DNA of 64,000 nucleotides from Candidatus Nomurabacteria bacterium (GCA_020845875.1 JADLEY010000009.1:3907-67906), one strand, 5' to 3'; shown: positions 47,481 to 49,451, counted from the stretch's first letter. Notes: generated from the letters alone by a model not told the origin. Translations and numbers: made by a program.

Positions 47481-48137
47481 ATGACTCCGCGCGAGCTGGA
47501 ACAAAGAAAAGAAATTTGGAAAAAGATCGCGCCGGTATTGCTCAAACAGTATCGCCGCGATGAGACGTTTTTGACGTGGGCAAATCCGTGGCAGCTGACG
47601 GTCGCGGTCACGCTCTCGGCACAGACGACGGATGATATGGTGAACAAGGTCACGCCGGCACTTTTTAAGAAATATCCGACTCCCGCGAAGCTCGCCGCTG
47701 CGCCAGTGGGTGATATTGAGAAACTGATAAGCAGGCTCGGATTTTTCCGCAGTAAAGCGAAGTATATAAAGGCAGCCGCGAAAATCGTCGCTGACGATTT
47801 TCGCGGCGTGATTCCGCACGATCCAATCGAGCTCCAAAAACTTCAGGGCATCGGTCGTAAAGGTGCAGTGGCGGTGATTTCAAACGCGTATCCCAAGTAT
47901 GCCAACATCGGCATTCCAGTGGACACGCATGTTATCCGATTCGCGAAGCGTTTCGGTCTCTCTAGACAAACTGATCCGTCAAAAATAGAACAAGACCTTC
48001 TACAAATCATTCCTAAAAAAGACTGGAAACGCGCCGGCTACGCCATCAAAGAATACGGTCGCAAAGAGGGCAAAGCTCGCGCCTACAATCCCGCCCTTGA
48101 TCCGCTCATGCAGGCAATAAAAAATTGTGTTAGATAA
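47481..48137 (+). CDS. nth: Endonuclease III-like HhH-GPD glycosylase (no Fe-S cysteines)
   Basis: LTVAVTLSAQTTD…HhH LQKLQGIGRKGAVAV…VDTHVIR. The stop codon sits inside a hairpin that terminates the convergent gene. Confidence 0.7.
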   Translation: MTPRELEQRKEIWKKIAPVLLKQYRRDETFLTWANPWQLTVAVTLSAQTTDDMVNKVTPALFKKYPTPAKLAAAPVGDIEKLISRLGFFRSKAKYIKAAAKIVADDFRGVIPHDPIELQKLQGIGRKGAVAVISNAYPKYANIGIPVDTHVIRFAKRFGLSRQTDPSKIEQDLLQIIPKKDWKRAGYAIKEYGRKEGKARAYNPALDPLMQAIKNCVR

Positions 48138-48147
48138 AATCTAACAC
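48117..48147 (-). terminator. Hairpin tgtgttagat-aaa-atctaacaca with a T-tract on the minus strand; terminator for the 78-aa minus-strand gene. It overlaps the nth stop.
   Basis: Perfect 10-bp inverted repeat preceded on the + strand by aaaaaa. Confidence 0.55.
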
Positions 48148-48160
48148 AATCAGTTAATTG

Positions 48161-48397
48161 CTACTTTCTCAAAAAGGAAGGCACATCTGGCACATCTTGT
48201 AATATTTTATATGCTTCTTCAAAAATAGTTTGATGTTCTTTGTCAAAGTTTCTTGAAGCAGTATATTGCTCCCGGATTTGTTCCCATGTTAGATCTTCGT
48301 AAACCTTGTATGAGCGGTATGCGTACCCAGAGTCAATATATTTTTTCTTTGAGATGCTATCAGCAATCTTCATTGCTATTGCGTATGCATTTTCCAT
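48161..48397 (-). CDS. Hypothetical 78-aa soluble protein, first small-gene module of the CRISPR island
   Basis: ORF bracketed by its own promoter (copy 1 of TTGACGAATCATA-N17-TATCAT) and terminator. No recognisable family. Confidence 0.4.
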   Translation of the reverse strand: MENAYAIAMKIADSISKKKYIDSGYAYRSYKVYEDLTWEQIREQYTASRNFDKEHQTIFEEAYKILQDVPDVPSFLRK

Positions 48398-48415
48398 AAT
48401 TTTAAGTCTTGCGTT

Positions 48416-48447
48416 ATGATAGCATGTATCTTATGATTCGTCAAGAG
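48416..48447 (-). promoter_or_regulatory. Promoter-core copy 1 (minus strand TTGACG-N17-TATCAT); the + strand carries the uvrC-start remnant ATGATTCGTCAAGAGAAATAA
   Basis: + strand 48431-48447 ttatgattcgtcaagag; −10 reverse complement at 48416-48421; −35 reverse complement at 48439-48444. Confidence 0.55.
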
Positions 48448-48451
48448 AAAT

Positions 48452-48485
48452 AAAAACTGCGTTAGGTCTTGCCTAACGCAGTTTT
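48452..48485 (-). terminator. Bidirectional hairpin terminator H1 (ctgcgttagg-tcttg-cctaacgcag) flanked by A5/T4
   Basis: 10-bp perfect stem. On the minus strand it is followed by ttttatttctc, and it ends the 49-aa TM-protein gene. Confidence 0.65.
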
Positions 48486-48555: not shown

Positions 48556-48705
48556 TCACGAGCAGCCAAAAATATATCCTGATAGGATTGCTAACAGCGG
48601 ATTTACAGAGATAGCCGCGATAGCACAAATGACGCAAGTGATTGGCCAAATACAGAATAGGTAACCCGCAAAGACGAATACTTTTACAAAGTTATACCAT
48701 TTCAT
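48556..48705 (-). CDS. Hypothetical 49-aa Cys-rich two-TM micro-protein (not in the ORF track because it is under 60 aa)
   Basis: Hand-translated MKWYNFVKVFVFAGYLFCIWPITCVICAIAAISVNPLLAILSGYIFGCS. Bracketed by promoter copy 2 and terminator H1. Confidence 0.35.
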   Translation of the reverse strand: MKWYNFVKVFVFAGYLFCIWPITCVICAIAAISVNPLLAILSGYIFGCS

Positions 48706-48722
48706 TTTTTAAGTTTTGTGAT

Positions 48723-48754
48723 ACTATACTGCCTATATTATGATTCGTCAAGAT
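48723..48754 (-). promoter_or_regulatory. Promoter-core copy 2 (minus strand TTGACG-N17-TATAGT)
   Basis: + strand 48738-48754 ttatgattcgtcaagat; −10 reverse complement 48723-48728. Confidence 0.5.
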
Positions 48755-48800: not shown

Positions 48801-48836
48801 TATACTCAAACTATGCTATCGCGCAAAATGAGTATA
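48801..48836. repeat. 36-bp palindrome copy U (TATACTCA-aactatGCTATCGCgcaaaa-TGAGTATA) overlapping the start codon(s) of the wHTH::Cas2-like gene
   Basis: Perfect 8-bp outer inverted arms. A second direct copy is at 49338-49373. Confidence 0.6.
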
Positions 48837-49334
48837 GAAGAGAAAATTATGAGATTTCTGTACGACAGAAAGTATTTGCACGCTCTCGCATTTAGTACCC
48901 TGCTACAAGAACCTTCTTTTTCTTCATACAAACCACAATCCATACGAAACGCGCTCACTAAGCTTTCGAAACAAGAACTAGTGCGCACCGGTGCCGACGG
49001 TATCATGCTCCACACAAAGGGGAGAGCGTATATAGAACAGAGGATGGCGCGGCTTCAACTATTTGATTCGCCGTTTACCAAGAATGCCCCGAAAAATCTG
49101 CTCGTGCTTTTTGATATCCCCGAAGATTGCAAGGCTGAGCGGGAGTGGTTTCGCCGGCAGCTCCGCGAGTTTGGCTACGACATGGTGCAAAAGAGTGTAT
49201 GGCTCGGACCGTCGCCATTGCCGAAAGAATTTGTGGAATATGTAAAAACTATCGGATTGCGCGATTGCATCAAAACATTTCGCCTCGCCCGCAATCAGCA
49301 GAGTGAACTGAAAAACAGCAAGATGAAAAAATAA
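48813..49334 (+). CDS. Winged-helix (PaaX/MarR-like) N-terminal domain fused to a Cas2/VapD-like ferredoxin-fold C-terminal domain; candidate adaptation/regulatory component
   Basis: C-terminal 'NLLVLFDIPEDCKAEREWFRRQLREFGYDMVQKSVWLGP…IKTFRL' has the Cas2 beta1(…YDV/FDI…)-alpha1-beta2(…RVQ.SVF…) pattern. The N-terminal ~90 aa look like a wHTH. The gene lies in the cas neighbourhood and is flanked by palindromes. Confidence 0.5.
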   Translation: MLSRKMSIEEKIMRFLYDRKYLHALAFSTLLQEPSFSSYKPQSIRNALTKLSKQELVRTGADGIMLHTKGRAYIEQRMARLQLFDSPFTKNAPKNLLVLFDIPEDCKAEREWFRRQLREFGYDMVQKSVWLGPSPLPKEFVEYVKTIGLRDCIKTFRLARNQQSELKNSKMKK

Positions 49335-49337
49335 CTA

Positions 49338-49373
49338 TATACTCATTCTGTGCTATCGCACAATTTGAGTATA
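49338..49373. repeat. 36-bp palindrome copy D (TATACTCA-ttctGTGCTATCGCACaatt-TGAGTATA) immediately after the wHTH::Cas2-like stop
   Basis: Same outer arms and GCTATCGC core as copy U. Confidence 0.6.
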
Positions 49374-49406: not shown

Positions 49407-49439
49407 ATAAAAAACTGCGCTGGGTTGTGCCTAGTGCAG
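49407..49439 (-). terminator. Hairpin terminator H2 (degenerate copy of H1) ending the 77-aa minus-strand gene
   Basis: ctgcgctggg-ttgtg-cctagtgcag with aaaaaa/tttttt flanks; shares the aaaactgcg…cgcagt frame with H1. Confidence 0.5.
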
Positions 49440-49451
49440 TAGTAGTTTCAT

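Follow-up and report, generated by a model that had tools for sequence, protein, structure and literature searches.

A 64,000-nucleotide stretch of DNA from Candidatus Nomurabacteria bacterium (GCA_020845875.1 JADLEY010000009.1:3907-67906), which we analysed as a whole and call the window, contains a gene whose product resembles Cas2 in its C-terminal half, appears to carry a DNA-binding domain in its N-terminal half, and is encoded beside cas genes. The locus thus raises the question of whether this gene supplies a Cas2 to the adjacent CRISPR system or encodes a regulator that merely lies next to it. An earlier note on this DNA had pointed to the adjoining cas genes and left several readings standing: a Cas2 surrogate, an autoregulator, or a PaaX-family regulator co-opted into the island. 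The cas genes are indeed there. The island lies between nth (47481-48137) and uvrC (about 52356-53555), with uvrA also nearby, and consists, in order, of a 78-aa minus-strand ORF, the gene in question, a 77-aa minus-strand ORF, a Cas12f-like gene, cas1, and a short array, with no cas2 or cas4 in the island.

48813-49334, plus strand: ORF of 173 aa with a winged helix-turn-helix and a Cas2-like (PaaX_M) domain, here called mini-PaaX
49750-49777: strong promoter-like site TTGACA-16-TATAAT, the Cas12f-like gene's own
49796-51124, plus strand: Cas12f-like / TnpB-family effector, 442 aa (PADLOC Cas12_x1, E 7e-30)
51173-51904, plus strand: Cas1 without its N-terminal domain, 243 aa, matching positions 116-327 of TIGR00287
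51916-52154: short CRISPR array, 4 repeats at a spacing of ~71 nt

The 442-aa protein also scored 77.8 bits against the NCBIfam guided_TnpB model, below the cutoff. As the Cas1 lacks its N-terminal domain, adaptation by this system is probably defunct.

The ORF at 48813-49334 was confirmed as real. In public gene calls it begins at the second ATG (48828), which gives a protein of 168 aa (P0001, 100% identical). The upstream ATG at 48813 is a plausible start, because P0004 and similar close relatives have no Met at position 6 and would need it. Numbered from this upstream ATG, the protein divides into two domains.

48834-49046, plus strand: winged helix-turn-helix domain, residues 8-78
49098-49328, plus strand: Cas2-like ferredoxin-fold domain (PaaX_M), the presumed dimerisation module, residues 96-172

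Searches against sequence families placed the C-terminal domain closest to PaaX. The best family match was Pfam's PaaX_M (PF20803), described there as 'PaaX protein central Cas2-like domain', which covered residues 97-164 at E 7.5e-13 and 48.8 bits (cutoff 24). This bit score is twice that of the Cas2 models: Pfam's Cas2 family (PF09827) fell just short at 23.6 bits (cutoff 23.8), and NCBIfam's cas2 model (TIGR01573) exceeded its cutoff of 24.5 with 26.9 bits, over residues 96-131 only, equivalent to model positions 3-39 of 96. The PADLOC Cas2 models matched the protein at E 1e-7. Residues D101, R110, W112, R114, Q126, W130, G132, P135-L136-P137, F140, Y143, and K154 of this domain are invariant. 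Pfam found no PaaX_C match, and the chain stops at residue 173, immediately behind the Cas2-like domain; neither Pfam nor NCBIfam found a transposase or recombinase domain.

Searches of the PDB by sequence, with a single sequence or a profile, returned just marginal Cas2 and winged-helix matches (E 0.03-0.8), so a comparison of structures was needed. We modelled the full-length protein with AlphaFold2 from 40 homologues (pLDDT 86.7). In the model, the N-terminal domain is a winged helix of the MarR/PadR type, with helices at residues 8-19, 26-32, and 41-53, a wing at 57-66, and a further helix at 68-78; the recognition helix corresponds to about residues 41-53 (PQSIRNALTKLSK). The C-terminal domain, residues 96-172, has the order beta-alpha-beta-beta-alpha-beta(-alpha), with beta1 at 96-100 (LLVLF), alpha1 at 107-119, beta2 at 123-126, beta3 at 129-132, alpha2 at 138-146, and beta4 at 153-157. 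Modelled alone (residues 88-173, pLDDT 83) and compared with the PDB by Foldseek, this domain matched Cas2 in all of its top ~20 hits, including 3exc, 8ia4, 2ivy, 4qr0, 5zyf, and 5xvn, followed by VapD (6zn8, 3ui3), with a probability of 1.0, a TM score of ~0.55, and E values of 2e-3 to 2e-2. Of these, 2ivy is SSO1404, 3exc is SSO8090, and 4qr0 is the Cas2 of S. pyogenes. The three best matches of the full-length model were PaaX of E. coli W (8a39) and the PaaX-like structures 3l09 and 3kfw, the latter being Rv0674, in alignments of ~165 columns that covered both domains. The earlier note had anticipated much of this: its N-terminal DNA-binding winged helix and its Cas2/VapD-like C-terminal half both appear in the model, its placing of beta1, alpha1, and beta2 agrees with the predicted secondary structure, and the check by AlphaFold that it proposed returned the Cas2/VapD ferredoxin-like fold.

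PaaX, a repressor that responds to phenylacetyl-CoA in E. coli and Pseudomonas, is covered by the Pfam families PF07848, PF20803, and PF08223 and by the equivalog model TIGR02277. In PaaX, as in our protein, a winged helix is followed by a Cas2-like central domain. However, PaaX has ~300 residues, whereas the protein studied here ends at 173 and lacks the C-terminal helical ligand-binding domain; it also scored only 23.7 bits against TIGR02277 (cutoff 264.55) and has no paa genes nearby. Judged by family matches and predicted structure, the gene product is a two-domain 'mini-PaaX', with the architecture of PaaX minus the third, ligand domain, and it belongs with the PaaX-like regulators (winged helix plus PaaX_M) rather than with PaaX proper. 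That the middle domain of PaaX resembles Cas2 has been recognised before, as the name of the Pfam family tells, and the suggestion that the fusion is new as an accessory of type V loci does not hold, as both this name and the matches to 8a39, 3l09, and 3kfw identify the architecture as that of PaaX. Our search of the accessible literature turned up nothing linking PaaX to Cas2 or to Patescibacteria.

To place the gene in its family, we collected homologues and their loci. The searches gave over 200 homologues with lengths of 157-170 aa, and 1,268 family representatives at E<=1e-10 (clusters at 50% identity). Species-representative genomes hold 395 loci, of which 80 were fetched; all 80 come from Patescibacteria, mostly labelled Paceibacterota or Nomurabacteria, so that the family, over the loci examined, is restricted to this group, which PaaX is not. 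Two paralogues occur in 12 of 68 genomes among these loci. In relatives, the gene's neighbours include genes for a UvrD-like helicase(-nuclease), RecR, DnaB, RecJ, aminoacyl-tRNA synthetases, and PGK; synteny beside such housekeeping genes is stable, and the gene looks vertically inherited.

We then asked how often these loci contain CRISPR components. Only one of the 80 genomic loci, that of the closest relative by UvrC identity (L008), has cas1 and cas12-like genes, and a k-mer array detector that does detect the window's array found none within 10 kb on either side of the gene at the 79 other loci. The orthologue with 69% identity (L005/L006) lies in the order uvrB-uvrA-nth-[gene]-small ORF-uvrC without cas genes, and in two further relatives (L009, L014) no cas genes separate the gene from the uvrC that follows, nth lying before the gene in L014. 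We conclude that mini-PaaX is not CRISPR-associated and is not part of the adjacent type V-F-like module: the gene is resident at this site, where the cas module has been inserted between it and uvrC. The idea of a co-opted PaaX-family regulator was therefore right about the PaaX-like nature of the protein and wrong about the co-option, for it is the cas module that was inserted beside a resident gene.

These data also bear on the possibility that the protein stands in for Cas2, its Cas2-like domain forming an adaptation complex with the truncated Cas1 and its winged helix directing this complex to the leader or to palindromes. Such a role would suit an island with cas1 and without cas2 or cas4, a domain with the Cas2 fold in which the Asp closing beta1 is retained, the score above the TIGR01573 cutoff together with the PADLOC matches, and the cas genes next to the gene in L008. 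However, the orthologues in L005, L009, and L014 precede uvrC without any cas genes, the 79 other loci have no array, some genomes carry two paralogues, and the Cas1 that would be the partner probably no longer supports adaptation. The Cas2 models align to the beta1-alpha1 region only, at half the score of PaaX_M, and the winged helix is an addition that Cas2 does not have. Within the window itself, a palindrome, a hairpin, the convergent 77-aa ORF, and the independent promoter-like site stand between the gene and the cas genes. Cas2 surrogacy for the type V-F-like system, one of the roles suggested in the earlier note, which named a lack of co-occurrence with CRISPR loci in relatives as a refutation, is thus not supported, given the syntenic relatives and the 79 of 80 loci without cas genes, and we regard it as extremely unlikely.

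The name Cas2 is nevertheless widespread in this family. Public records and sets of defence-system HMMs label family members 'CRISPR-associated endonuclease Cas2', among them two distant homologues (P0106, P0028) whose Pfam-annotated neighbourhoods contain no cas genes. The evidence indicates that the name is a misannotation when applied to mini-PaaX proteins. It would lead to false Cas2 calls in Patescibacteria and make degenerate loci like that of the window look competent for adaptation. This misannotation and the operator architecture described below are what deserve the attention of specialists; the original claim of a Cas2 fusion is ordinary or misattributed.

If the gene encodes a regulator, its binding sites may lie close by. 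Two 36-bp palindromes flank it in the window, and with them lie a possible promoter and a possible terminator.

48716-48744, plus strand: candidate promoter TTGTGA-17-TATGAT, weak, ~55 nt upstream of O1
48801-48836: O1, palindrome of 36 bp and putative operator, TATACTCA-AACTAT-GCTATCGC-GCAAAA-TGAGTATA
49338-49373: O2, palindrome of 36 bp and putative operator, TATACTCA-TTCTGT-GCTATCGC-ACAATT-TGAGTATA
49410-49440: imperfect GC-containing hairpin (copy 3 of repeat D5), possible terminator of the mini-PaaX gene

O1 spans the two possible start codons, at 48813 and 48828, and O2, with the same arms and the same centre, begins 3 nt past the stop codon. Both follow the general form TATACTCA-N20-TGAGTATA around the centre GCTATCGC. 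They are the sole matches in the 64 kb to TACTCA-N17-23-TGAGTA (0.03 expected), as well as to the complete pattern when up to 3 mismatches are allowed (0.00 expected), and the centre motif occurs in a palindromic context only in these two sites. Their spacing is 537 bp in the window and ~498-507 bp in relatives; by inspection, the spacings seen (498, 500, 507, and 537 bp) have no obvious common phase. The promoter-like site lies inside copy 2 of repeat D2, which duplicates the promoter/5' end of uvrC, and consensus scans for promoters in the window and at two other loci (L078, L073) gave no excess over shuffles, these regions being AT-rich. The hairpin lies past O2 and before the convergent 77-aa ORF and was not called by the terminator scan; its sister copy of D5 at 48453-48485 scores as a bidirectional terminator.

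Paired palindromes are a feature of the family. A clear palindrome of 30-48 bp with the centre GC(T/G)AT(A/C)GC lies near the start of the gene at no fewer than 59 of 82 homologous loci; it either covers the start codon or is found at about -55 to -18. At 38 loci its arms recur in a second copy, -14 to +97 nt from the end of the protein match, which approximates the stop codon; by our own estimate, the chance of finding such a copy is ~7e-4 per locus (allowing five spacings, 180 positions, and up to 4 mismatches over the 20 positions of the arms). The closest relative, L008, carries both copies. Whereas the centre is common to the family, the outer arms vary by class, and these classes track the recognition helix of the protein encoded between them.

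Arms TATACTCAAA: recognition helix KKQSINN (KPQSIRN in the window)
Arms TATAATCA: recognition helix HPQS(V/I)RN
Arms TTGTTAxA: recognition helix SLRGTMS
Arms ATACTTATAA: recognition helix LSGSLSY
Arms GTGACACA: recognition helix R(T/S)(L/V)R(S/T)TIDRL, such as RTLRSTIDRL
Arms AGTGACAA: recognition helix NSIN(T/V)A
Arms GACTCACCA: recognition helix KTSFANAIS
Arms CTTCCAT: recognition helix KESVRNNFYY

Paralogues in the same genome, such as L023/L036 and L024/L026, differ from each other in both arms and helices, which is the signature of cognate protein-operator pairs. With a palindrome over the start codon, an equivalent in most homologues, and arms that co-vary with the recognition helix, the comparison of sequences bears out the autoregulator that had been offered as one reading of the gene. 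More than ten arm classes, each paired with a recognition-helix variant and with two known sites per gene, amount to a ready-made code, which could possibly be reused as orthogonal repressor-operator pairs. To our knowledge, the control of transcription in Patescibacteria is almost unexplored, and we know of no earlier description of this two-domain Patescibacteria family, of paired self-flanking operators with an invariant centre, or of such a code between arms and recognition helices.

Do these palindromes act as DNA or as RNA? A transcript starting at the promoter-like site in the D2 copy would include both O1 and O2, so the palindromes could instead form hairpins at the 5' end and in the 3' UTR of the mini-PaaX mRNA, where the Cas2-like domain, which has an RNase-type fold, would bind or cut them. 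Perfect palindromes of 20-23 bp at two loci (L082, L086) would form very stable hairpins, and among departures from symmetry O2 has a mild excess of G-T over A-C mismatches (34:19), compatible with some role at the RNA level. In the window, however, self-complementarity does not extend beyond the outer 8 bp and a few bases further in, so that an RNA hairpin formed there would be poor, and Rfam has no family that matches the element. The arms co-vary with the recognition helix of a winged helix, a DNA-reading element. Moreover, the asymmetric centre is found in both orientations relative to the gene, and at O1 the G-T and A-C mismatches are balanced (37:38), without strand asymmetry; from these two observations we take the palindromes to act as DNA. 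Regulation at the RNA level is, in our judgement, very unlikely.

The preferred reading is that mini-PaaX is a sequence-specific DNA-binding autoregulator that binds O1 and O2 and has no part in CRISPR function, which we consider probable. The comparison with PaaX suggests how it might work. PaaX of E. coli has a three-part structure with a dimerisation motif as its middle domain, binds the operator TGATTC(N27)GAATCA, and represses its own promoter (PMC9493321). From this homology we infer that mini-PaaX, which has no ligand-binding C-terminal domain, would likewise dimerise through its Cas2-fold domain, with its two winged helices ~28 bp apart. The dimer would sit on the 36-bp composite palindrome, each winged helix reading one of the outer arms of 8-10 bp, in the window TATACTCA and TGAGTATA, whose centres are ~28 bp apart. 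The variable N-terminal domain goes with variable arms and the near-invariant C-terminal domain with an invariant centre, which suggests that the Cas2-like dimer lies over the family-invariant GC(T/G)AT(A/C)GC and possibly contacts it. Repressors of the MarR/PadR type, by contrast, dimerise through helical extensions of the winged helix and bind compact palindromes of ~16-20 bp, whereas mini-PaaX presumably dimerises through a separate domain.

The position of O1 over the start codon implies autorepression, and binding there would make the protein a repressor of its own gene. Long-spaced palindromes at the own promoter or start are thus a likeness between PaaX (TGATTC-N27-GAATCA) and, putatively, mini-PaaX (TATACTCA-N20-TGAGTATA). 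The mini-PaaX sites differ in their invariant 8-bp centre and in bracketing the gene as a pair; we know of neither having been described for PaaX. As for O2, we considered whether it serves as operator for a target gene downstream, but the gene that follows runs convergently in 19 loci and in the same direction in 17. O2 is therefore not a conventional operator of this kind, and the idea was rejected. Most likely, O2 would cooperate with O1 by looping over the ~537 bp between them, or would act as a roadblock or insulator.

The C-terminal domain is near-invariant, with 14 invariant residues that include the Asp equivalent to the metal ligand of Cas2. Such conservation exceeds the needs of a mere dimerisation module, and an enzymatic or nucleic-acid-contacting role may be possible, to judge from the alignment. 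We weighed the alternative of a nuclease or toxin that controls itself, in which the domain of Cas2/VapD fold works as an endoribonuclease or DNase and the winged helix serves just to repress its own gene, as in a toxin-antitoxin system made of a single chain. VapD is the toxin of the VapXD toxin-antitoxin system and shares its fold superfamily with the mini-PaaX C-terminal domain; VapD toxins (6zn8, 3ui3) are among the structural matches, and the paired operators hint at tight autoregulation. But the VapD matches are weaker than those of Cas2, mini-PaaX is fused to a DNA-binding domain, and no VapX-like partner or other conserved antitoxin-like gene appears among its neighbours. Stable, vertical-looking synteny beside housekeeping genes also speaks against a toxin, sites upstream of other genes (see below) fit a transcription factor better, and the homologous domain of PaaX is a dimerisation motif (PMC9493321). 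We hold this alternative to be highly improbable.

The strictly conserved Cas2-fold domain and the invariant centre together pose the question of whether a Cas2-like fold can contact DNA sequence-specifically. A bolder version of our reading would answer it: mini-PaaX proteins would form a hitherto undescribed system of mutually orthogonal DNA-binding proteins, each gene always bracketed by two composite palindromes of its own of 34-48 bp, and the Cas2 fold, beyond dimerising, would read the centre directly or act on it as a nuclease or cruciform-binding module. We think this unlikely. If true, the system would represent a surviving link between nucleases of the Cas2/VapD kind and repressors of the PaaX type, and reading or processing of the centre would account for the conserved nucleotide sequence of the sites, even where they lie within the coding sequence of miaA.

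That site in miaA emerged from a scan of metagenomes for the window's arm class.

The pattern scanned for was ATACTCA-N6-GCKATMGC-N6-TGAGTAT, and at least 120 stretches matched. Among the matches listed, at least 52 sites are the O1 or O2 of family genes, and at least ~51 are orphan sites, internal and with no family gene within 900 bp. The orphan sites belong to contigs of other organisms; the genome studied here was scanned over the 64 kb of the window only, where no target genes of orphan sites were found.

At least 26 of the orphan sites among the matches listed lie inside the miaA coding sequence, all at the same codon position. They represent 24 distinct miaA sequences whose proteins are 47-78% identical to a reference copy, and the shared position points to inheritance rather than insertion. 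Even the positions left unspecified (N) in the pattern are nearly invariant across these 24 sequences, with an identity of 0.98 compared with 0.82 and 0.74 in the flanks; ascertainment bias affects pattern-specified positions only. At least 14 other orphan sites among those listed lie just upstream of a gene for a Cys-rich protein of ~565 aa without a Pfam match, and still others precede ruvC (two loci), the methionine aminopeptidase gene map (two loci), a pheA-like prephenate dehydratase gene, and murD.

Dispersed sites invite comparison with RAYTs, the REP-associated tyrosine transposases, which have an HUH/Y1 domain and are flanked by REP palindromes present in hundreds of copies per genome. 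Mini-PaaX genes likewise lie between two cognate palindromes of ~36 bp, the second found at 38 loci, with one class of palindrome for each class of protein. One could therefore imagine a mobile or recombination cassette whose protein, with its nuclease-type fold, recognises, processes, and spreads the flanking palindromes; paralogues with distinct arms in some genomes, and extra copies at unrelated loci, one kind even inside a coding gene, would be its products. Unlike RAYTs, however, mini-PaaX has no HUH/Y1 transposase domain or other recombinase domain, and its palindromes are few. The window has two sites in 64 kb, and in 426 kb around 37 ascertained sites we found no further independent site, the extra matches with up to 4 mismatches being O1/O2 partners only. 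A REP-like repeat family was rejected on this copy number. Given also the conserved synteny of the gene and the inherited position of the miaA site, a mobile cassette seems to us most doubtful.

Low density of sites is instead what a transcription factor controlling few genes would show. In other genomes, the same arm class occurs before unrelated housekeeping genes and inside miaA, which suggests that the protein probably controls a small regulon beyond itself, and mini-PaaX is most likely an autoregulating, sequence-specific repressor of this kind, the direction of regulation being what the position of O1 would imply.

Some of the neighbours and sites have a flavour of DNA repair: uvrA, nth, and uvrC in the window, the UvrD-like helicase-nuclease, recR/dnaB, and recJ in relatives, and the two orphan sites before ruvC prompted the idea of an SOS-like regulon, with neighbour counts that are inflated by synteny among related genomes. 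As a general claim this idea was rejected, since other neighbours are aminoacyl-tRNA synthetase and PGK genes, and other orphan sites lie at map, the pheA-like prephenate dehydratase gene, murD, the Cys-rich gene, and miaA.

The end of the uvrC promoter together with the first codons of the gene (MIRQD) occurs in four copies in the window, all of which share an invariant 15-mer, TATGATTCGTCAAGA.

Copies of the uvrC 5' end in the window
48410-48446, first copy
48717-48753, second copy
49696-49732, third copy
52333-52369, fourth copy

These copies delimit discrete modules: a hairpin with a 49-aa ORF, the mini-PaaX unit with orf77, and the cas12f-like-cas1-array segment. The same promoter end and MIRQD codons are present in three copies (at 2486, 3191, and 5779) in L008, the closest relative and the only one of 80 genomic loci with cas genes, and in a single copy in each of the syntenic relatives without cas genes, L005, L009, and L014. 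The uvrC 5' end therefore looks like a site of repeated insertion in which the target, or an att-like sequence, was duplicated. An integrase was not seen.

Each duplicated copy also carries a minus-strand sigma-70-like promoter (TTGACG-16/17-TATCAT/TATAGT/TATTAT), and these promoters face small minus-strand ORFs. No family match was found for orf78, the 49-aa ORF, or orf77.

Minus-strand promoters and small ORFs
48444-48416, minus strand, sigma-70-like promoter
48751-48723, minus strand, sigma-70-like promoter
49730-49703, minus strand, sigma-70-like promoter
48161-48397, minus strand, orf78
48556-48705, minus strand, 49-aa hydrophobic ORF
49452-49685, minus strand, orf77

Another repeat family, D5, is a hairpin of approximately 31 nt with three copies in the window, two of which have a terminator-like score, one of these on both strands.

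D5 hairpin copies
48120-48150, after nth
48452-48482, after a copy of D2, the duplicated uvrC promoter/5' end
49410-49440, after the mini-PaaX gene

The adaptation module beside the mini-PaaX gene looks degenerate. Cas1 (51173-51904, 243 aa) lacks the N-terminal domain and matches positions 116-327 of TIGR00287; because only 48 nt separate cas1 from the upstream gene, the adjacent DNA does not encode the missing domain. A 442-aa Cas12f/Cas12_x1-like protein (49796-51124), scoring below the NCBIfam TnpB cutoff, is the effector, and the CRISPR array (51916-52154) has only four repeats, the first of them divergent. Four Logan contigs identical to the window (L001-L004) carry the identical protein, and all four end just after cas1, at the array, which is thus absent from them; these ends are consistent with assembly breaks at the CRISPR repeats.

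Operator-class sites also lie away from family genes in the metagenome loci, which were retrieved with a pattern (ATACTCA-N6-GCKATMGC-N6-TGAGTAT) whose specified, non-N positions the search itself fixes. The coding sequence of miaA (tRNA isopentenyltransferase) contains a 34-bp operator-class palindrome, ATACTCAAAATCAGCGATAGCATTATTTGAGTAT, at an identical codon position in 24 distinct sequences among the matches listed, with almost no synonymous variation within it and freely varying flanks (L090, L094, L097, L103, L110, L145, L150-L153, L155, L161, L164, L170, L172, L179, L187, L190, L193, L194, L208, and others). On at least 14 metagenome contigs, a putative ATACTCA-class operator lies directly upstream of the start of a gene for a Cys-rich protein of ~565 aa, with many CxxC motifs and sometimes in tandem pairs, for which a Pfam match was not found (loci L102, L107, L116, L139, L148, L149, L180, L191, L195, L201, L204, and L205).

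Across loci L008-L087, mini-PaaX paralogue groups unusually often adjoin DNA-metabolism genes, for example a UvrD/PD-(D/E)XK helicase-nuclease upstream (14 loci), recR (10), dnaB (10), recJ (8), and also uvrA, nth, and uvrC, with counts inflated by the shared synteny of related genomes. Genes for aaRS and PGK are also among the neighbours.
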